A stretch of 20,000 bases of DNA from IMG/VR virus record IMGVR_UViG_3300011883_000001. One strand, given 5' to 3'. Positions within the stretch are counted from its first letter, which is position 1. Every line of letters starts with the position of its first letter. Positions 7,674 through 19,950 of this stretch are shown here, piece by piece. Source of the stretch: an uncultured virus (IMG/VR IMGVR_UViG_3300011883_000001) (taxonomy: Duplodnaviria > Heunggongvirae > Uroviricota > Caudoviricetes > Schitoviridae). Below the pieces are notes generated by a model. It was not told where the DNA came from and did no database searches. It saw only the letters and a program-made list of their open reading frames with translations. A program made the position numbers and the translations under genes.

Positions 7674-8057
7674 ATGCAACCTTTGTATGAAACTGCACTA
7701 GACAGGATCAAAGACATAAACATGGATGCTGAATTAGAACCTAGATCTCATTTCACTTATTTCAGTGGTACTACTAAGGTAAGACATCAAACTGTATTCT
7801 GGGCATATGACAATCTAGATTTAGCTATATGTATTACTTTTCATTTACCACAAATAAAAGAAGGCATCTCTAAGAGGTTTCTCTTACCTCTTGAGGAATT
7901 ACCTACTGATCCCTTGGCTATTACATTAGTATTAGCTACTTGGGTAGAGTTGGAAGAAAAAACTAAACGTAGAGAGTTAAACCAATTAACTCTACGTATT
8001 CTCCTGGCTCCTCTAATTATCTTCATCACTGTAGCTCTCGCTGCTTACTTCGCTTAA
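7674..8057 (+). CDS. Hypothetical protein with C-terminal membrane anchor
   Basis: C-terminal ILLAPLIIFITVALAAYFA; LEELPTDPLAITLVLA motif. Confidence 0.75.
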   Translation: MQPLYETALDRIKDINMDAELEPRSHFTYFSGTTKVRHQTVFWAYDNLDLAICITFHLPQIKEGISKRFLLPLEELPTDPLAITLVLATWVELEEKTKRRELNQLTLRILLAPLIIFITVALAAYFA

Positions 8058-8079
8058 TTAAATCTTAAAGGAATAAACC

Positions 8080-9039
8080 ATGTATAAATCTCCTGCAGAA
8101 ATGCAAGAAGAGATCGAACTCTCTTTATCTCGTAAACGTATCAAGGAGGTAGTCCTTGAAGAACTGACTTCTGATATGGACATGTTAGATAAGATTATTG
8201 AAGGTATTGAATACCTTGATGCATGGACCAAGACAGAATCTACCTACGAATCCAAACAAATGCGTAAAGATCATATTGCATCCATGGATTTACAAGAGAT
8301 TGTAGAAACTATCTATGTCACTATCCTTGCTCAGAAAGCTCCTAGTACCTTGAATAACCTTGCATGTCAGTTAGCAGGTATCCTTCAGTTTGAAGAGAAC
8401 TATCAAGGTATTACAGCTATTGCTGAGTGTATTGCAGTGCTTTGCCATACCAACGTGTATGACTTAAATAAGCCTCATAAGTACAGTTCTATCCTTGTAG
8501 TACCTAACTTCACTCTCTCAGATGAAACCAAGGAATTCATTGAGAATGCTCAGTATTTACCTCCTATGAAAGTATTACCTAAGTTCTTGATCCATAACCG
8601 TAGTAGTGGGTACAAGACGATTAAAGGTGATTCCCTGATTCTAGGAGGTAAACATAACCATCATACTGAAGATATCTGTCTGGATGTCTTAAACATTATG
8701 AACAGCATACCTCTGGTATTAAATCAAGAGATGTTAGCTATCCAGCAAGAACCTGAGAAAGACTTAGATATTATTGAAGACTTTGTAGGTACTCAACTGG
8801 AATACCAGAAAGCTATTAGCCAACAGAAAGAGAACTGGAAGTTATTCCTTAAACGTTCTGATCTGGCTTATCAATTAATGGGTACTGATCCGTTCTATCT
8901 CACCAACAAGGTAGATAAACGAGGACGTATCTATACCCAGGGATATGCAATCAATATTCAAGGTAACTCTTACCAGAAAGCCTGTATTGATCTTGCACGT
9001 AAAGAACACGTACACGTACCAGAGGATTTCTTTAAATGA
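8080..9039 (+). CDS. N4-like RNA polymerase II subunit 1 (gp15-like)
   Basis: YLPPMKVLP, SLILGG.HNHH..DICLDVLN and FYLTNKVDKRGRIYTQGYAINIQG (DxRGRxY motif of T7-type RNAPs). Confidence 0.93.
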   Translation: MYKSPAEMQEEIELSLSRKRIKEVVLEELTSDMDMLDKIIEGIEYLDAWTKTESTYESKQMRKDHIASMDLQEIVETIYVTILAQKAPSTLNNLACQLAGILQFEENYQGITAIAECIAVLCHTNVYDLNKPHKYSSILVVPNFTLSDETKEFIENAQYLPPMKVLPKFLIHNRSSGYKTIKGDSLILGGKHNHHTEDICLDVLNIMNSIPLVLNQEMLAIQQEPEKDLDIIEDFVGTQLEYQKAISQQKENWKLFLKRSDLAYQLMGTDPFYLTNKVDKRGRIYTQGYAINIQGNSYQKACIDLARKEHVHVPEDFFK

Positions 9040-9317
9040 TGCATTTAATCTTGCCAATATCTTTTGCAAAGAATCCAATCTATTTTTCTTATTCAGGACA
9101 CTACTTTTGCAATGCTGTGTATATGGCGTTGCATACCCAACACATCACAGTATTTAAAGTAAATGCTGGATTACTCAGAAAGAATTATCCATCACGTAAT
9201 ATTATAACTGTTTCTGCTGATCAAGCAGCAGCTATTGGTATGTTATTTGATGTTTTTGCTCAGCAAGATGTTGAATCATTCTATAAAGCTATTGAACAAC
9301 TGTTGGAGGTAAATTAA
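9036..9317 (+). CDS. Small hypothetical protein, possible member of the expanded family
   Basis: ATGA overlap with the RNAP subunit 1 stop; C-terminal ITVSADQAAAIGMLF...FYKAIEQLL. Confidence 0.7.
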   Translation: MMHLILPISFAKNPIYFSYSGHYFCNAVYMALHTQHITVFKVNAGLLRKNYPSRNIITVSADQAAAIGMLFDVFAQQDVESFYKAIEQLLEVN

Positions 9318-9668
9318 ATGTTATGGACAGAAAGAGACATTATGTATCTCAGTGCTTTATATACTGATGAATCATTTGAATCAGCTAAACACTTAATAGA
9401 TCCAACTAAGTATAGAAAACTCACAGAATTAACTGCTAACCGCGTAGTTATAACGTTTGCGTATTCTGAAATAGGATCTCAGCTTGTACACGCTTCTGAA
9501 TATCCTCTTATATTACTGGATGTTCGCTATGTAGAAACAATAGTTAAATTAGATGATCTTATTCAGATACATCAGTTAATGCTTCTATGCGGTAATCAAC
9601 CTGATGTATTTCAGACCATGGCTTCAGAATATTTAAACCAACAAGGATATAAACCAAATGAATCCTAA
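9318..9668 (+). CDS. Small hypothetical protein, expanded family (closest to 9658-9996)
   Basis: GGAGG SD; VKLDDLIQIHQLMLLCGNQPDVFQTMASEYL. Confidence 0.8.
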   Translation: MLWTERDIMYLSALYTDESFESAKHLIDPTKYRKLTELTANRVVITFAYSEIGSQLVHASEYPLILLDVRYVETIVKLDDLIQIHQLMLLCGNQPDVFQTMASEYLNQQGYKPNES

Positions 9669-9996
9669 TTCTTATTTAGATCTTGATGTGCTTTATTCAG
9701 TAGAAGCACATGATGAGTTTGCTCATCTAATGAATGACGAAGGTATAACTTCCTTTGAAGAGCAGGAACGGTTAACCATTACATTTAAAAATTCTTATTA
9801 TCCACATATTCTAAATGAATATCCGCAGTATCCCTTAACCATCTATAAACGTCATAAAGCTAACCTAAATCGTTGCTTAACTATCAAACAGTTCAAACAT
9901 GTAGTTAATCTCTTTCAAATTACTCTAGGTAATGAAGAAGCATTTAATGAAATGATCAAAGCTTATTTAATCTCAGAAGGAATCAAGCATGATTGA
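9658..9996 (+). CDS. Small hypothetical protein, expanded family
   Basis: AAGGA SD; LTIKQFKHVVNLFQITLGNEEAFNEMIKAYL. Confidence 0.8.
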   Translation: MNPNSYLDLDVLYSVEAHDEFAHLMNDEGITSFEEQERLTITFKNSYYPHILNEYPQYPLTIYKRHKANLNRCLTIKQFKHVVNLFQITLGNEEAFNEMIKAYLISEGIKHD

Positions 9997-10348
9997 TGCA
10001 CATTTAGCACTTAAAGTTCCAGTAGTTAAAGACAATCGCCAAGTACTTATAGATGCTGGTTTACTTAATCCTCATGTATCAACCCAATATTTACATTTGA
10101 ATATTGAACCCTCTACAACTACCTGGAATAAACAATGGTCTTTACGTTATGAAGATTCTTCTTATAACGGACGTACTTCAATCACAATTAAAGCTGAAGA
10201 GTTTATTAATGTATTTCATTTATTACAGTTAAATGCTCGATTACCTGTTGAAGCTTATCTTGGACCAGTACGAATTTATGCCCAACATCGTACTAACTTC
10301 AAGAATAATCCTCATTGGAAACACTTCCCAACTACTGAAACTGAATAA
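9989..10348 (+). CDS. Small hypothetical protein, expanded family (closest to 10360-10743)
   Basis: NRQVLIDAGLL...WSLRYEDS...IKAEEFINVFHLLQL. Confidence 0.8.
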   Translation: MIDAHLALKVPVVKDNRQVLIDAGLLNPHVSTQYLHLNIEPSTTTWNKQWSLRYEDSSYNGRTSITIKAEEFINVFHLLQLNARLPVEAYLGPVRIYAQHRTNFKNNPHWKHFPTTETE

Positions 10349-10359
10349 GGAATAAACCA

Positions 10360-10743
10360 ATGCTACAACCTAAAGTAATCTTTGCTGTATCTCTTAAGAA
10401 AAAGAATGCTGACAAAGAACGAGCTATCCTGATTAAAGCAGGTCTACTTACATCTGCTCAATCTAATAATTATGCTTATCTTATTAAAAATTATCCTTGG
10501 CATTTAGGCTGGAAGTTAACTTTACAAGATTCTTATAAAACGTCTACTTACAGACCATTCTTAATAGTTACAGCTAAACAGTTTGTACAACTCTACCATT
10601 TGAGTCAGTTAATTCCTAACTGTGAAGCTACTACCTTACTTGATTCTATTAAGCTAACTGCACGTAACAAATCAGTTCTTCTTTGGGGGGATGCAATAAG
10701 TAAGCAATATTATGCGAATCGTTATTTAAAGGATGCAGCTTAA
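10360..10743 (+). CDS. Small hypothetical protein, expanded family
   Basis: ERAILIKAGLL...WKLTLQDS...VTAKQFVQLYHLSQLIP. Confidence 0.8.
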   Translation: MLQPKVIFAVSLKKKNADKERAILIKAGLLTSAQSNNYAYLIKNYPWHLGWKLTLQDSYKTSTYRPFLIVTAKQFVQLYHLSQLIPNCEATTLLDSIKLTARNKSVLLWGDAISKQYYANRYLKDAA

Positions 10744-11051
10744 TGACCTATATAGAGCAGTATATTAATGATATCTCTGTTGGATGTAATGTATCTAAAG
10801 AATTAATTCAGGAATTTGCAGGTAAAGTTATTCTACCTAGAGAAGATATTCATCAGTATTTAAGGTTTAACCTACCTTTTCCTGGACATTATATTGATAA
10901 GGATCGTATGCACGAATCTTTATGGAATACTGAATATCAACCAATGATTTTACTTACTCAAGATCATTTCAGATCTCTGTATCAAATTTTAGTATTAACT
11001 GTAGATATCAACGTATTTCGTGCTTTTTTGAAAGAGCATAATTATCTCTAA
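10743..11051 (+). CDS. Small hypothetical protein, expanded family
   Basis: TAATG coupling; LLTQDHFRSLYQILVLTVDINVFRAFL. Confidence 0.75.
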   Translation: MTYIEQYINDISVGCNVSKELIQEFAGKVILPREDIHQYLRFNLPFPGHYIDKDRMHESLWNTEYQPMILLTQDHFRSLYQILVLTVDINVFRAFLKEHNYL

Positions 11052-11080
11052 CCAACCTAATTTACTTAAGGAATAAACTC

Positions 11081-11194
11081 TTGAAATCTTATTCACCTAT
11101 TGAATACCTATGCATTGATATTGCTAACTGCTATGGTATGATAAATGCTAACCATAGAGGATTGACAAATGAAAGTATGTACCCACTGCAATAA
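11081..11194 (+). pseudogene. Orphaned 5' end of the RNAP II subunit 2 gene (19 codons, running on as a 37-codon ORF)
   Basis: AAGGAATAAACTC-TTG then KSYSPIEYLCIDIANCYG, 16/18 aa identical to KSYTPIEYLCIDISNCYG at 11804-11857. Confidence 0.85.
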
Positions 11195-11795
11195 ACTATT
11201 ACCATATACAGCGTTTGCTAAACAATCTACAGGTAAACAAGGTTTACGTGCTGATTGTAAAGAATGTCATAAAGCATATGGATACACCGAAGAAGGTGTT
11301 ACTAAAGCTATGTATGCAAATCAGAAATCTAAGTCCAAGAAGCGAGGTCATGTACTACCTAACTATACATGGGAGCAATTCCATGCATGGTGTATATCAC
11401 AACCTAATTGGACTTTACTATTCAATGCTTGGGTTGCATCAGGTCATCTTAAAGATCTCAAACCAAGTGGTGACAGATTAGATGACTACCAATCTTACAC
11501 CTTAAACAACCTTCAATTAGTCACTACTAAGCAGAACTTAGATAGATACCGTAATGATGCTATTCAAGGGATCAACACTAAAACTTGTGTACCTGTTAGC
11601 CAATATACCTTAGACGGCGTGTTTGTTAAAAAACACCATTCCGTAAGTGAAGCTGCACGTGTAGTAGGTGATACAGCTACCAATATTCGTATGGCTGCAC
11701 AAAATAAAGAAATTAAACGTAAAAACCCTGATGGTACATACCGCATTGAAGTACGAAAACAATGTAAGGGTTTCAGATGGAAATTTGAGGATTAA
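11169..11795 (+). CDS. Free-standing homing endonuclease (His-Me/HNH-like core, N-terminal Zn finger, C-terminal NUMOD1-like domain)
   Basis: CTHC...CKEC; KPSGDRLDDYQSYTLNNLQLVTTKQN; PVSQYTLDGVFVKKHHSVSEAAR...CKGFRWKF. Confidence 0.85.
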   Translation: MKVCTHCNKLLPYTAFAKQSTGKQGLRADCKECHKAYGYTEEGVTKAMYANQKSKSKKRGHVLPNYTWEQFHAWCISQPNWTLLFNAWVASGHLKDLKPSGDRLDDYQSYTLNNLQLVTTKQNLDRYRNDAIQGINTKTCVPVSQYTLDGVFVKKHHSVSEAARVVGDTATNIRMAAQNKEIKRKNPDGTYRIEVRKQCKGFRWKFED

Positions 11796-11797
11796 AC

Positions 11798-12412
11798 ATG
11801 TTTAAAAGCTATACCCCAATCGAATATCTATGTATTGATATAAGTAATTGCTACGGCTTAGATAAAGACTTATTTGAAGACAGAATCCAATGGGTTAAAG
11901 ATAACTTTCATCAGTTAGATTCCTTTGTGGATAAAGCTGATGATAAGTATCAGTACATCAAAGCTGTCATTGCTTTACGTGAAGTATTAGCTGGTAAAGC
12001 TACAGGTCATACTGTAGCTCTGGATGCAATCTGTTCTGGTATCTCATTAATGAGTGCTATGACAGGGTGTATTAAAGGTTGTAAAGCTACTGGTTTAATT
12101 GACACTGGTTTACGTCCTGACGCTTATTCTGCTGTAACGGTAGAGATGAACAAGATTCTAACTAAACAAGGACTAGCAGCATTGGAGGTGTCACGTAAAG
12201 AGACGAAAGCTGCCATGATGACAAAAAGTTATGGATCATCTAATAAACCAAAGGAAATCTTTGGTGAAGATACTCCAGCTCTGAAAGCATTTGAAGATGC
12301 TTGTCATGCTGTTGCTCCTGAAGCATTTAAGCTCATGCAAGACCTGATTGATGCTTGGCAGCCTTATACCTTAGAACATTCTACATGCCTGATGGCTTCT
12401 CTGTGCGTTTAA
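11798..12412 (+). CDS. N4-like RNA polymerase II subunit 2 (gp16-like), N-terminal part; leaves the homologous frame near 12383
   Basis: YLCIDISNCYGLDK..FEDRIQW; motif A LDAICSG; motif B RKETKAAMMTKSYGS. Confidence 0.92.
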   Translation: MFKSYTPIEYLCIDISNCYGLDKDLFEDRIQWVKDNFHQLDSFVDKADDKYQYIKAVIALREVLAGKATGHTVALDAICSGISLMSAMTGCIKGCKATGLIDTGLRPDAYSAVTVEMNKILTKQGLAALEVSRKETKAAMMTKSYGSSNKPKEIFGEDTPALKAFEDACHAVAPEAFKLMQDLIDAWQPYTLEHSTCLMASLCV

Positions 12413-13032
12413 AGACTATGGAAACTGTAGAGAAAACTCTTCGTATTGATGAGCTTGACGATACAGCAATCACAGTCCACATCAAAGAGAACAAAGGATC
12501 TAAACGTGGTGTAGCTTTAGCTGCTCATGTAGTCCATTCTGTAGATGCGTACGTACTTCGTACTATGCAACGTAGATGCTCATTTGATTCTATTCAGGTA
12601 GGTCAGATAGCAGACATGATTCAGTGTGAGTTATACGAAGCATCTAAACCAACATTAGTAGATCCTAAGCTTGTAGAGCTTGTAGAGCTGTATAAAGCTA
12701 CAGGTATAGCTGACGTACGTATTATTGATTACATCACTGATACGTCAATTGGGGCTGTTCCACAGCCTCTATTAAAGAAGCTTGTTGCTATCCTGGATAA
12801 GATGCTTGAACTAGGTAGCTTTGATCTACTCACAGTACACGACTGCTTTAAGTCGCACCCCAACCACTGTGATGCAGTACGTTACTGGTACAAGGAGATT
12901 TGCGCAGAGATTGCAGATTCTAATATCCTGCAATGTATCTACTCTCAAATCGTAGGTTATGAAGTGACATTTACTAAAGCCATGAATGGTATTGGTAAGC
13001 TCATCCGACAAGCTAACTATCAACTATCTTAA
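12355..13032 (+). CDS. N4-like RNA polymerase II subunit 2, C-terminal part (homology from about 12385), -1 frame relative to the N-terminal part
   Basis: MPDGF.V, LAAHVVHSVDAYVLRTMQRRC, motif C TVHDCF, HPNH...VRYWYKEI.AEIADS, terminal NYQLS. Confidence 0.92.
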   Translation: MAALYLRTFYMPDGFSVRLKTMETVEKTLRIDELDDTAITVHIKENKGSKRGVALAAHVVHSVDAYVLRTMQRRCSFDSIQVGQIADMIQCELYEASKPTLVDPKLVELVELYKATGIADVRIIDYITDTSIGAVPQPLLKKLVAILDKMLELGSFDLLTVHDCFKSHPNHCDAVRYWYKEICAEIADSNILQCIYSQIVGYEVTFTKAMNGIGKLIRQANYQLS

Positions 13033-13037
13033 TTTAT

Positions 13038-13065
13038 AGACTACCTTTGGGTAGTCTTTATTTTT
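13038..13065 (+). terminator. Rho-independent terminator
   Basis: AGACTACC-tttg-GGTAGTCT-TTATTTTT right after the RNAP subunit 2 stop. Confidence 0.85.
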
Positions 13066-13079
13066 CTTAGGAATAAATT

Positions 13080-13403
13080 ATGCAACAGATTAATGAAGTA
13101 GCGGATGTATTCTTTTTAAATAAACCAGAATATTGTGAGTTATTTAAAGAGCTAGGTTATAAAGCTTATCGTATAGATGATGCTGAAGTCTTTGTAGCAA
13201 CAACTCAGATCACACTTAAACGTATTAAAGAAGAAAAAAGTTTCACTACCTTTGGTACTAATAACGATACCGATAGAGCATTAAATACTTCTATCCCTGT
13301 AACTAAGCAGATATTAATTCTTATGGATCTTATGCCTACAGAAGAAACCTATATAGCTGCTGTAAACCAAATCTTAAAGGAACAAATCAATGAAAGTATT
13401 TAA
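13080..13403 (+). CDS. Small hypothetical protein, expanded family
   Basis: FLNKPEYCELFKELGY...VTKQILILMDLMPTEETYIAAVNQIL. Confidence 0.8.
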   Translation: MQQINEVADVFFLNKPEYCELFKELGYKAYRIDDAEVFVATTQITLKRIKEEKSFTTFGTNNDTDRALNTSIPVTKQILILMDLMPTEETYIAAVNQILKEQINESI

Positions 13404-13662
13404 TTCTATTTATATTAAGCGCAATCGAGCGAACACTAATTTAATCATGGAACATGGATTACATATTGTAAGTTTTAATCCAGGACGTTTACTTAAAATA
13501 GATATTGCTTTTCCTGCAAGTTCTCCTAAAGGATTCCATACTGCTGTGTTTACTTCAGGAGATAACCCAAAGAAAGTATTATCAACTAAAGAGTTTAAAG
13601 CAGCTTTACTGATGCCTTCCTACGAGAGTCTACAAGCTTATTTAAACACTGTAATTAAGTAG
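13390..13662 (+). CDS. Small hypothetical protein, expanded family
   Basis: NTNLIMEHGL...LSTKEFKAALLMPSYESLQAYLNTV. Confidence 0.8.
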   Translation: MKVFNSIYIKRNRANTNLIMEHGLHIVSFNPGRLLKIDIAFPASSPKGFHTAVFTSGDNPKKVLSTKEFKAALLMPSYESLQAYLNTVIK

Positions 13663-13669
13663 GTGAGTT

Positions 13670-13915
13670 ATGGCTGTTAATTTTTTCTGGGTATCTATTG
13701 AAGAACCAGGAGTTATAGAGTTTCTGTTGCAACAGGGATTTAGGGAAACAACTCCTGTAACTTCCCCAAATAAACCAAGAATGTCATATTACGTAGATGT
13801 TCAAAAGAAACACTTCTTTGAAACTGTGACATTACCTACATGTACTCTTGAACAGCTTAAGTTATATCTAGCTTTCCCTGAGCTTAGACCTCTCGAATTT
13901 AAACCAGACTTTTAG
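13670..13915 (+). CDS. Small hypothetical protein, expanded family
   Basis: EEPGVIEFLLQQGF...CTLEQLKLYLAFP; AGGTGA SD. Confidence 0.8.
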   Translation: MAVNFFWVSIEEPGVIEFLLQQGFRETTPVTSPNKPRMSYYVDVQKKHFFETVTLPTCTLEQLKLYLAFPELRPLEFKPDF

Positions 13916-13923
13916 GAATAAAT

Positions 13924-14217
13924 ATGCAATTACCTCCAGCTATTTATATAGAAATACCTATCAATACAGTTGAGGCGAATAAACGTGGATTTACTATTTT
14001 AGGAGCTAAAATTTCAATAGCAGCTTATTCAGAAAGACTAATTAAAATTATTCCTAACTACCGTAGTATGTCTCTAAAAATTGTTAAAGATTGGAGAGGA
14101 TTTCCTGTCACCTTAGAACAATTAAGTGTTATTAGCATGTTACCAACATACGAATCTATCTATGTTTACCTGTTTGCTCTAGGGCATGATTTTAAGTATC
14201 CACAAACATATCGGTGA
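13924..14217 (+). CDS. Small hypothetical protein, expanded family (sister of 14223-14513)
   Basis: WRGFPVTLEQLSVISMLPTYESIYVYLFALGHDFKYPQ. Confidence 0.8.
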   Translation: MQLPPAIYIEIPINTVEANKRGFTILGAKISIAAYSERLIKIIPNYRSMSLKIVKDWRGFPVTLEQLSVISMLPTYESIYVYLFALGHDFKYPQTYR

Positions 14218-14222
14218 TTAAT

Positions 14223-14513
14223 ATGAAATTACCAGAAGTTGTTTATATAGTTACTAACTATACTCACAAAGAACTTAAAGAAAGAGAAGTAACCTTCTTT
14301 GGTCATCCTATTCAAGGTTTTGATCCCACAAACACTCTTATTGCTCTTTACTCTGATGAAACATCTTTAACCTTATGGAAAACACATGGTTGGCAAGGAT
14401 TTCAAGTAACTGATGAACAATTATCTGTTATATCTTTAATACCTTCTTATGAAGGCATCGTTCATTACCTGGCTTCGTTAGGTGATACTTTTGATTACCC
14501 TCAACATAGTTAA
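14223..14513 (+). CDS. Small hypothetical protein, expanded family
   Basis: MKLPEVVYI aligns with MQLPPAIYI of the upstream gene; WQGFQVTDEQLSVISLIPSYEGIVHYLASLGDTFDYPQ. Confidence 0.8.
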   Translation: MKLPEVVYIVTNYTHKELKEREVTFFGHPIQGFDPTNTLIALYSDETSLTLWKTHGWQGFQVTDEQLSVISLIPSYEGIVHYLASLGDTFDYPQHS

Positions 14514-17728: not shown

Positions 17729-18754
17729 ATGAATACTTCTATTTCTAAAGCTCGTCAATTAGTTATTGCTCTTATGCAGTCTAACGTTCCTGTAAACCTA
17801 ATCAGTTCTCCTGGTTTAGGTAAATCAGATTTGATTCGTTCTATCGCAGACGAATTTAAACTTAAACTGATTGACTTGCGTTTATCTACTTGTGATGTAA
17901 CAGACTTAACAGGTCTGCCTAACATCAATGAACAAGGTCGTTCAGTATGGTCACCAAATGAATGCTTCCCTGTACAAGGTGACAAGATTCCTGATGGTTA
18001 CGAAGGTTGGTTATTATTCCTTGATGAAATTACCAATGCTCCACGTGCTGTACAGGCTGCTGCTTACAAATTAGTTTTAGACCGTCAGGTAGGTATGTTT
18101 GATTTACATGAAAAAGTAATCATCGTATCTGCAGGTAACAAGGTAGATGACAATGCAGCTGTAACAGAAGAAATGTCTACAGCACTAAAGTCTCGTATGG
18201 CTCATATCAATCTTGAGATCAACGTAGATGATTGGTTAGACTGGGCTATGCGTCAAAACGTACACCACTCTATTACATCATTTATTGAATTCAAACGTAC
18301 ATCTTTGTACAATTTCCAACCGAATGTTGCAGCTGATACTTTCCCATGTCCGCGTACTTGGGGAATGGTAGCGAAGATTGTAGACAATGTAGGGATTAAT
18401 AATCCTGCTTTACAAGACCTTGTAGCAGCAACTATTGGTGATGGTACAGCACATGAATACATGAGCTTTACCAAGTTCTTCAGTAACTTGCCTAAGTTTG
18501 AAGATATCGTAGCTAATCCAGAAAAAGCTAAAGTACCTGAACAACCAGGACCTCTTTATGCAATCTCTGGTTCTATCGGCTCTCAGATTGAAACCAAGAA
18601 TGCATCTGCTGTATGGAAGTATGTGTTACGTCTTCCTATGGAATTCCAGATGTGTGTATTCCTGAACACTGTTAAACGTAATCCAGGTTTAGCAGCAAAC
18701 AAAGATGTGTTGGATTGGGCAGTTAAATTTGCACCTAAAATCTTAGGTCAATAA
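17729..18754 (+). CDS. MoxR-like AAA+ ATPase (N4 gp24-like)
   Basis: Walker A SSPGLGKS, Walker B LLFLDE, sensor AGN, ALKSR, FPCPRTW. Confidence 0.92.
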   Translation: MNTSISKARQLVIALMQSNVPVNLISSPGLGKSDLIRSIADEFKLKLIDLRLSTCDVTDLTGLPNINEQGRSVWSPNECFPVQGDKIPDGYEGWLLFLDEITNAPRAVQAAAYKLVLDRQVGMFDLHEKVIIVSAGNKVDDNAAVTEEMSTALKSRMAHINLEINVDDWLDWAMRQNVHHSITSFIEFKRTSLYNFQPNVAADTFPCPRTWGMVAKIVDNVGINNPALQDLVAATIGDGTAHEYMSFTKFFSNLPKFEDIVANPEKAKVPEQPGPLYAISGSIGSQIETKNASAVWKYVLRLPMEFQMCVFLNTVKRNPGLAANKDVLDWAVKFAPKILGQ

Positions 18755-18809: not shown

Positions 18810-19950
18810 ATGCAATCATTTACACCAACACAAGAACAACGTGATGCTTTATCAGTAGTTCGTGTACATATCTTACGTAAACCAGAAAATGCATTCTTTG
18901 CTACCTTGGTTTTAAACACTCCTACTCACTGGACAATGTCAGTTCCTACTGCAGCAACCAATGGTATTGATTTGTTTATTAACCCTGATTTCTTCATGGG
19001 ACTTAATAAAGAAGAACGTATGTTCCTGCTGGTCCATGAATGTATGCATGTGGTTTATGAACATGCTAACCGACTAGGTAACCGTGATCGTCGTTTATGG
19101 AACGTAGCTGCAGATTACGTAATTAACATAGATCTGGTAGATCGTGGTTATGTTATGCCTAAAAAAGGACTTCTTGATCAGAAGTATCGTGGTATGTCTG
19201 CAGATGAAGTTTATGAGAAACTTCGTGAAGAAGATAACCAGGATCAAGCTCCGTGGGATGATCTTCAACCTAGCTCTAATGGCTCAGGAGAAGACGGAGA
19301 AGGTGAAGGGAATAGTAATGGTAACCAACCTACTTATACATCAGAAGAAATCTCTGAGCACGTTAAAAGCTTAGCTGTACAGGCTACTCAAGCAAGTAAG
19401 CTGGCTAAAGAAGCTGGAGGTATTCCAGGTGATATTGAACGTTTATTAGATGATTTATTAAACCCTAAGCTTCCATGGGATAAGATCCTTCAACGGTTCT
19501 TGTTCTCTATTAACAAGACAGATTACTCTTGGGCTAAACCAAACAGACGTTTCCTACATAAAGGTATTATCTTACCTTCTATGCATGGTGATTCTATTGG
19601 TCAACTAGACTTTGCTATTGATACCTCTGGTTCAGTAAGNNNNNNNNNNACGATTCAAACCTACTGGTGTAGGTGTGATGCAGTTTGACCACGTTATTCA
19701 GTCAGTCAACCAGGTAGCTACAATCCATGAATTTAAGAAACTTAAATTTAAGGGAGGAGGCGGTACTAATATTGAGCCAGTACTGCAGCATTTTAAAACC
19801 AAATCACAAGCTAAAGCTTTGATCGTACTGACAGATGGATACTTCCATCACAGTAAAGAAATGGACCCAAATAAACCTGTTGTATGGCTTATCTACGATA
19901 ACCCAGGATGGCAACCTCCATTTGGTACAGCTATTTACTTTGACAATTAA
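18810..19950 (+). CDS. Putative metallopeptidase plus VWA-domain protein (N4 gp25-like); one gene interrupted by a 10-N gap at 19640-19649
   Basis: TAATNG, HECMH (HExxH), WNVAADYVIN, MIDAS-like IDTSGS before the gap; RFKPTGVGVMQFD, GGGGT and LTDGY after it. Confidence 0.9.

Follow-up and report, generated by a model that had tools for sequence, protein, structure and literature searches.

A probable homing endonuclease cassette with a linked replacement gene start inside the RNA polymerase II large-subunit gene of an uncultured N4-like virus

Endonuclease insertions that split phage genes include MobE in nrdA of Aeh1 and MobA with genes 39/60 of T4. Here we consider an endonuclease gene found within the gene for the large subunit of the N4-type RNA polymerase II (RNAP II) in the uncultured Schitoviridae virus IMGVR_UViG_3300011883_000001; the window referred to throughout is the whole stretch of this record that was analysed, 20,000 nucleotides (nt) in length. 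Gene 39 of 10Gb is also split by an endonuclease insertion (bioRxiv 10.1101/542787). The endonuclease genes of coliphage G7C disrupt no gene (PMC3670811). The free-standing endonucleases of T4-type phages are inherited together with flanking DNA once the endonuclease-free genome has been broken, and genomes that carry them are resistant because the adjacent gene differs in sequence (PMC2988022). Mobile endonuclease open reading frames (ORFs) of fungal mitochondria, as in Allomyces atp6 and the Glomus gene hybrids of atp6, atp9, cox2 and nad3, bring in a foreign gene end and leave the native end as a relic, the two copies being alike as protein and ~63% alike as DNA (PMC3630166).

The locus in the window is most probably a free-standing, intron-less homing endonuclease cassette that lies inside the large-subunit gene and carries a linked replacement for the start of that gene. 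The native start survives upstream of the endonuclease as a short stub, and the gene begins again downstream from a second copy of the same codons, called here the restart. The features are listed below in window coordinates, X1 being one of three public sequencing runs that were used for comparison.

11068..11078, plus strand: native ribosome-site context motif AAGGAATAAAC before the stub, from the motif count
11081..11137, plus strand: stub, the native TTG start and 18 large-subunit codons of the recipient allele
11081..11194, plus strand: stub ORF of 37 amino acids in the ORF list, running across the endonuclease start and stopping 26 nt inside it
11131..11157, plus strand: perfect 7-bp inverted repeat across the left junction (11131-11137 with 11151-11157), a predicted hairpin
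11138..11857, plus strand: whole inserted cassette, 720 nt, from the X1 contig alignment
11138..11168, plus strand: 31-nt leader with the endonuclease Shine-Dalgarno sequence GAGGA (11157-11161), from the sequence
11169..11795, plus strand: putative homing endonuclease gene, 208 amino acids (phrog_1035, 4e-16; fold matches)
11787..11791, plus strand: Shine-Dalgarno sequence GAGGA for the restarted polymerase gene, in the last codons of the endonuclease, from the sequence
11798..11857, plus strand: foreign replacement start, ATG and 19 large-subunit codons, from sequence comparison
11858..13032, plus strand: native body of the large-subunit gene (N4 gp16-like; phrog_2051), frameshifted near 12376-12385
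8080..9039, plus strand: RNAP II small subunit (N4 gp15-like; phrog_2166, N4-like RNA polymerase, 4.5e-83)

The closest described counterpart is gp15.1 of G7C ('putative HNH homing endonuclease', HQ259105), which is homologous to the window's enzyme at 43% identity and has the same place before the RNAP II large-subunit gene, with a ribosome site in its last codons. The G7C-type coliphages also have a linked divergent first 60 nt of the gene that ends, as does the restart, at codons YG/LDK (the stroke marks the junction). However, in G7C the native start is replaced and not duplicated, no stub was found (score 27 against a null maximum of 43) and the left border is the gp15 stop codon. The free-standing Seg and Mob endonucleases of T4-type phages, examples of intronless homing with co-conversion and marker exclusion, resemble the window in that the gene has co-inherited flanks and is, in the window presumably, outside an intron. 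They differ in sitting between genes, in leaving no duplicated gene piece after homing and in belonging to the GIY-YIG and canonical HNH families; the word 'duplicat' is absent from the review PMC2988022. Insertions that split phage genes place an unspliced endonuclease in an essential gene, as the window presumably does, with a new ribosome site downstream, but they give two polypeptides whereas the window encodes the whole protein downstream and the upstream piece is redundant. A sequence-only reading of the window had drawn a parallel with fungal mitochondria, and the parallel is apt (PMC3630166), as there too an intron-less endonuclease ORF sits in a protein gene that a foreign copy keeps whole. 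The fungal hybrids concern the 3' end in organelle DNA, with an ORF that is often fused in frame and of the LAGLIDADG or GIY-YIG type. The window concerns the 5' end in a phage, with a His-Me finger enzyme that is translated separately and a new ribosome site and start that are supplied by the insert.

Most of the layout had been described in that reading, and recounting gave the same figures. Stub (11084-11137) and restart (11804-11857) are identical at 39/54 nt and 16/18 amino acids with 9 synonymous codon swaps, TCT to AGC included. The spacing is 31 nt from stub to endonuclease and 2 nt from the endonuclease stop to the ATG at 11798, and the new GAGGA (11787-11791) is seen within the final endonuclease codons. 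The TTG of the stub (11081) was said to lie behind a recurrent motif of the genome, and the motif statistics agree: AAGGAATAAAC has 4 exact and 4 one-mismatch occurrences, all on the plus strand, against 0.78 expected, 0/200 shuffles gave 8 matches, and the motif is also found ahead of the starts at 8080 and 10360. The duplication of the gene start is far beyond chance, the local protein score of the restart against the upstream region being 100 and the shuffle maxima 42 (n = 200) and 44 (30 codon shuffles).

Contigs of the three sequencing runs were aligned to window positions 8000-14000. Run X1 contains a close relative, 88-98% identical piecewise, with unbroken cover of 8058-11137 at 88-97% identity. 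One X1 contig (record 4, 736 nt, depth 6.5) aligns to 10435-11137 and then continues for 36 nt more, of which all those shown, 30/30, are identical to window 11858-11887; no X1 contig aligned at 11216-11818. Because this contig joins 11137 to 11858, the 720 nt at 11138-11857 are an insertion in the window, and because it joins the stub directly to the body, the gene of the relative is uninterrupted and starts with the stub. The cassette entered the large-subunit gene exactly after codon 19 (...CYG/LDK...). The earlier expectation that an endonuclease-free relative would match the stub and then switch at YG/LDK was thus borne out: X1 matches the stub up to 11137 and the body from 11858 onward. 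A more distant relative in run X2 also reads through without the insert and aligns to the stub and not to the restart. The cassette is thus absent at this site from a close relative, a presence/absence pattern usual for a free-standing homing endonuclease gene. Searches of metagenome and viral contigs gave 0 exact matches to the 30 nt at 11858-11887 and, with the N-terminal half of the polymerase as query, no closer relative. No holder of RNA was listed among the sequencing runs, and all runs found carry only small shares.

Which of the two copies is the native one was examined by comparison with the nearest phages, the Acinetobacter N4-like phages At2, nACB1, Presley and XC38 (67-75% nucleotide identity). 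Out of 54 nt, the stub is identical to At2 at 44, to nACB1 at 45, to Presley at 41 and to XC38 at 41, and the restart at 37, 33, 34 and 32; these four phages have 38-44/54 nt identical among themselves in the gene start. In a blastn search of 50,697 phage records the stub found nACB1 (84%, E 4e-8) and At2 (86%, E 1e-7), and the restart found only At2 (77%, E 2). The restart begins MFKSY, with an extra Phe codon as in At2 and Presley, and the stub begins MKSY as in nACB1. The stub is therefore, on these nucleotide affinities, the native copy, and the restart is an outlier allele. The restart differs from the stub at 15/54 nt while the next 30 nt show 0 differences from the X1 relative. This excludes divergence in place of the downstream copy, and the restart must be foreign DNA with a sharp right border and not a local duplicate that has drifted. 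The proposal that a splice-free element invaded the gene with an N-terminal replacement is supported by these affinities together with the X1 empty allele.

The same reading had called the new start 'recoded', and this part needs qualifying. At protein-identical positions, the restart has the same codon as the four relatives in 7/15, 4/11, 5/14 and 3/11 cases, slightly lower than the 53/102, 43/91, 51/84 and 34/67 found by the same measure in the rest of the gene. Codon divergence of this size is no more than ordinary between these phages and shows no excess over background, so that the restart looks like an ordinary foreign allele from another lineage rather than the product of purposeful recoding.

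A similar linkage is found in a second, distant lineage. In G7C, a single nt separates gp15.1 from the gp15 stop and another separates it from the gp16 ATG, and an AGGAG ribosome site for gp16 lies inside its last codons, a layout as in the window. The G7C region matched 58 Gamaleyavirus records, with four different fillings at the gp15/gp16 site, and the gene start was aligned in 9/58. Four of these have the G7C-type endonuclease (G7C, Bas96, Moonfish and PGN829.1). Five are without it, namely HK2 and pSb-1 (a different, spaced homologue), EC1-UPM (nothing) and PhAPEC5 and Bp4 (a small ORF). In nt 1-60 of the gene the mean number of differences between the two groups is 21.2, against 7.7 and 9.3 within them, and in the next four 60-nt blocks the between-group means are 4.5, 4.8, 4.2 and 2.9. 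The patch stops at the YG/LDK codons homologous to the window's junction. Since it co-segregates with the endonuclease, the divergent gene start travels with the endonuclease in this lineage too. Flanking DNA is thus co-inherited with the endonuclease both as the foreign 60 nt of the window and as the patch in 4 versus 5 coliphages. Among 18 compared alleles, which are not phylogenetically independent, the codon before the Gly codon has a third base other than T in 7/7 with an endonuclease <=22 nt upstream, and T in 10/11 of the others, that is, in all but XC38; the restart and viral contig L018 alone have Ser (AGT) where the DIxN motif otherwise has Ala. As a separate observation on the coliphage gp16 genes (L071-L076, L004, L006 and L017), even phages without the G7C-type endonuclease have 6-15 differences in the first 60 nt against 7-17 in the next 240. 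Such hypervariability is what one would expect if cassettes of this kind had been gained and lost repeatedly.

Homologues of the endonuclease were found by tblastn in 113 phage records. The large-subunit gene is immediately preceded by a homologue in G7C, HK2, pSb-1, pVco-5 and the viral contigs L018 and L045, whereas in nACB1, XC38 and L008 the homologue lies downstream of that gene; L018 carries the closest viral-contig homologue (47% identity). At the six loci where the homologue precedes this gene no stub was found, the scores being 23-30 against null maxima of 38-44. Among 63 viral-contig loci no flank duplication was found in the 51 scored; 2 had flanks too short and 10 were left out as duplicates or partial matches (L036-L039, L051, L059-L061, L064 and L066). 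Marginal scores above the nulls at L014 and L015 were rejected as spurious, since stop codons and low-complexity stretches of charged residues occur in the aligned sequence. For the Vibrio lineage of pVco-5 the nearest endonuclease-free relatives are 72% identical, which is too distant to reveal a patch. The claim that nothing of this kind was described for N4-type RNAP II stands in part. An endonuclease upstream of the gene was already annotated in G7C as gp15.1, while the stub and the linked start appear undescribed. A literature search, limited to the parts of the papers available, gave no description of a phage 5' stub or of the G7C linked patch, and the stub was not met in the available parts of PMC3670811, PMC6027278, PMC2988022, bioRxiv 10.1101/542787 and PMC10448857. 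Only the stub and the linked replacement start appear to be new, and overall the locus is a variant of known homing behaviour.

The endonuclease itself is read as a PacI-like nuclease core preceded by a Cys4 ribbon and followed by a NUMOD1 tail. Pfam and NCBIfam scans of the single protein gave nothing above cut-offs and a PDB sequence search nothing significant, and the PHROGs match is to phrog_1035, 'endonuclease VII' (4e-16). A family alignment was made with 16 homologues of 40-100% identity, the nearest proteins encoded on other contigs being 71% and 68% identical. Scanned singly, 12/16 members have NUMOD1 (best E 1.7e-6), 7/16 the His-Me finger domain PF18275 (His_Me_b4a2) and 3/16 the I-HmuI NUMOD-like domain. 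The ORF in the window is intact and retains 23/23 family-invariant positions. An AlphaFold model (pLDDT 89.6) predicts a beta-beta-alpha unit at residues 99-133 (strands 99-103 and 115-119, helix 120-133). The top two PDB rows from Foldseek are I-HmuI (E 2.4e-3) and PacI (E 6.4e-3, probability 1.00). In a wide structural search, whose Z values here are modest by the tool's own note, PacI came first (residues 35-131, Z 7.4, 94 residues aligned), then the DNA-binding part of I-HmuI (residues 138-208 on I-HmuI 118-172, Z 7.1, rmsd 1.6), and the I-TevI DNA-binding domain gave Z 4.9. The domains so assigned are an N-terminal Cys4 ribbon, a PacI-like His-Me finger core and a NUMOD1/I-HmuI-like DNA-binding tail.

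No catalytic His at the end of the first strand is invariant in the 16 members or in 6 aligned members. The invariant Arg103 occupies the position of the HNH His; D102 and Y110 are invariant and Y107 and N123 occur in >=90% of members. PacI is known to use a Tyr from a loop in place of the His, with Asp and Asn as metal ligands (PMC5714182 and PMC4081073). Given the fold matches to PacI and I-HmuI and the conserved Asp, Tyr and Asn, we read the protein as described above, with nuclease activity predicted. PacI (PDB 3ldy/3m7k, His-Me finger group 20) and the window's enzyme are alike in core fold and in having no catalytic His, and an Asp, a loop Tyr and an Asn that are conserved in the window's family are putative counterparts of the metal ligands and Tyr base of PacI. 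The two differ in that identity is 17% with no significant sequence match, and in that the window's enzyme has the added Cys4 ribbon and NUMOD1 tail and the behaviour of a mobile element and not of a restriction enzyme.

A mechanism that would give this arrangement is as follows. The enzyme would cut the endonuclease-free allele at or next to the YG/LDK codons. The break would be repaired from an endonuclease-bearing genome, and the endonuclease and the linked gene start would be copied together. The right junction would then no longer be a target, as its left half is spelled differently by silent changes, and neither would the left junction, as its right half is replaced by the insertion; the replacement start is presumably resistant to cleavage. 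In the coliphages gp15 would supply homology upstream of the endonuclease, so that the native start is replaced and not duplicated. In the window's lineage six unrelated small ORFs (9036-11051) separate gp15 from the polymerase gene. With a donor of G7C layout and no upstream homology in the recipient, the left end of the break would have been joined illegitimately as it stood, and the stub would be what was left. Once formed, the stub could act as a left homology arm in further homing. Stub (to 11137) and foreign tract (to 11857) stop at the same base position, which fits a break at that point, and on the best reading the stub records where the break fell. In this scheme the activity of the nuclease, its cut site, the immunity and the lack of splicing are all predictions.

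It is conceivable, though we hold this more doubtful than not, that the stub is more than a scar and that stub, endonuclease and replacement start together form a working, intron-free, self-repairing homing cassette. The stub would then be the source of homology on the left, and translation of the endonuclease would be driven by, or coupled to, the native ribosome site; the insertion would split the target, and the foreign start would restore the gene and block re-cutting. If true, this arrangement and the G7C-type patch would amount to a general third lifestyle for homing endonucleases in conserved phage coding sequence, beside introns and inteins, and the enzyme would have a PacI-type catalytic centre without His, of a kind that no homing endonuclease is so far known to use.

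It was considered whether the insert could instead be a group I intron that splices itself out and so connects stub and body, in which case the gene start carried within the insert would be incidental. A group I intron has a U before its 5' splice site and a G as its last base. The last exon base here is indeed a U, and the insert lies exactly between two codons of an intact frame. However, its last base is C and not the required G, and although a 7-bp helix (11131-11137 with 11151-11157) has P1-like geometry, the splice-site U would pair with A and not G. The in-frame ATG, the ribosome site and the 20 matching codons suit a translational restart and are needless for an intron; as the polymerase gene restarts from the cassette, splicing is not needed. 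No group I model was found in Rfam at E up to 10, the output being four chance snoRNA/miRNA rows, and the sequence outside the ORF is only 31 + 2 + 60 nt (93 nt). The statement in the sequence-only reading that there is no room for a group I core agrees with the lack of a model match and with the terminal C. A proven intron in gene 16 of G7C-like phages is, however, likewise without an Rfam hit (bioRxiv 10.1101/542787). The fold z-score of 11120-11880 is -4.26, but it is -2.19 when other shuffles are used, and values from -0.08 to -2.92 were obtained for seven nearby coding segments of 761 nt. The fold signal is therefore not special, and fold energy was rejected as a sign of an intron. Given that the G7C homologue stands between two separate genes, with 1 nt on each side, the endonuclease family is free-standing. 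An intron is very improbable.

An assembly chimera of two co-occurring strains, with and without the endonuclease, might also have produced the record. Just one contig carries this protein sequence in a collection of 5.8 billion proteins, no sequencing run with exactly this genome was found, an endonuclease-free relative does exist and the record also contains a 4-nt frameshift. However, the longest exact word common to stub and restart is 8 nt, so that no path through a k-mer graph is available and a join driven by a repeat is unlikely. The left junction, from stub to leader, matches no repeat either, and the layout is biologically coherent and parallels that of G7C. We find it hard to credit a chimera. 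The third possibility is that two phages recombined illegitimately by chance, with the endonuclease carried passively and not targeting the site. Recombination among N4-like phages is frequent (bioRxiv 10.1101/542787), the endonuclease is without the canonical His, and cutting of the site by it is a prediction. Against this, stub and foreign tract stop on the same base, as would be expected of a break at the site and not of two random crossovers, members of the family are found in this niche in at least 6 other phage lineages, and the coliphage endonuclease co-segregates with a patch that ends at the same codon. Passive carriage is unlikely on this evidence, and the homing cassette with a linked start remains the preferred explanation.

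Several points weigh against that explanation. The empty allele is one contig with 36 nt beyond the junction, and since the sequencing runs found contain relatives and not this genome, the junctions are without independent read support. As the polymerase gene is frameshifted downstream, a working gene after the insertion cannot be read from the record. The family has Arg103 in place of an invariant His, and the PacI-type reading, with Tyr as the base, comes from a structural match that is modest at Z 7.4. The codon differences of the restart are ordinary foreign divergence with no visible selection. The coliphage comparison covers 9/58 records, the four endonuclease-bearing coliphages are probably one clade, and the first 60 nt are variable also among phages without the endonuclease. 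The cleavage, homing and expression side of the model is likewise predicted from the DNA.

Comparison of the filled with the empty site narrows the predicted break point of this uncharacterised endonuclease family to a single base position or its immediate neighbour, and the empty allele together with the two junctions of the filled one, left and right, makes a natural set of substrates for biochemistry. If the cassette works as proposed, a selfish nuclease can invade the conserved beginning of an essential polymerase gene by supplying a substitute for it, with no need of an intron, and the same logic would account for the hypervariable first 60 nt in G7C-type coliphages. A short orphan ORF annotated ahead of an endonuclease gene may in fact be a gene start that was displaced, and the first codons of a gene may have a history separate from that of the rest. 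A PacI-like His-less active site, if confirmed, would be an extra catalytic variant among homing endonucleases.

The large-subunit gene downstream of the cassette is present as two ORFs, 11798-12412 and 12355-13032, which are the two halves of the protein. Residues 2-197 of the first and 9-225 of the second match phrog_2051 at profile positions 1-193 and 192-401. The frameshift lies at 12370-12412, where one frame stops at 12412 and the rest resumes in another frame at ~12385. After 12376 the sequence of the X1 relative is longer by 4 letters, an extra copy of a 4-nt direct repeat, which gives one open frame (...LEHSFYMPDGF...); either the window has undergone a true deletion that inactivates or splits the gene, or the record is wrong at this point. 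The large-subunit gene is also annotated in two pieces in XC38 (L007 1350-3424), near residue 145, and in pVco-5 (L005 3132-5228), near residue 120-140, the splitting ORF in both being a ~530-550 nt insert. An endonuclease-bearing insertion in gene 16 of G7C-like phages was shown to be spliced (bioRxiv 10.1101/542787). The large-subunit gene is a hot spot for mobile elements.

Some features at the cassette borders were considered as marks of its origin or expression. Frame 0 of the leader reads LTIED-stop, with a weak likeness to the gp15 C-termini of G7C and HK2, but the common part is LxxED-stop and is too short, so the leader was rejected as the tail of a donor gp15. A sigma-70-like site (TTGATA, 16 nt, TATGAT, with TG) at 11115-11142 is created across the stub/insert junction. 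It was rejected as promoter evidence because the scan overall gave fewer sites than shuffles, 10 against 24 expected. The sequence GAGGATT was rejected as a mark of a foreign ribosome site, since it occurs 7 times against 2.36 expected and also stands before the ORF at 9036, and base composition shows no break at the cassette. The 7-bp inverted repeat at 11131-11157 consists of the last 7 nt of the stub and a segment just before the endonuclease ribosome site; it may be a hairpin that controls translation, a remnant of junction formation or a product of chance.

In the surrounding DNA, the six small ORFs at 9036-11051 between the RNAP II subunit genes are without family matches, and relatives have one or two there. 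Several small ORFs of the window look paralogous by eye, for example 13924-14217 with 14214-14513 and 9318-9668 with 9658-9996. A second, unrelated endonuclease gene at 18810-19688 (phrog_1314, 'HNH endonuclease', 9e-88) adjoins an ATPase gene at 17729-18754. The X1 relative is also without 258 nt at 13092-13351, its contig joining 13092 to 13351, which is a second presence/absence difference from the window.

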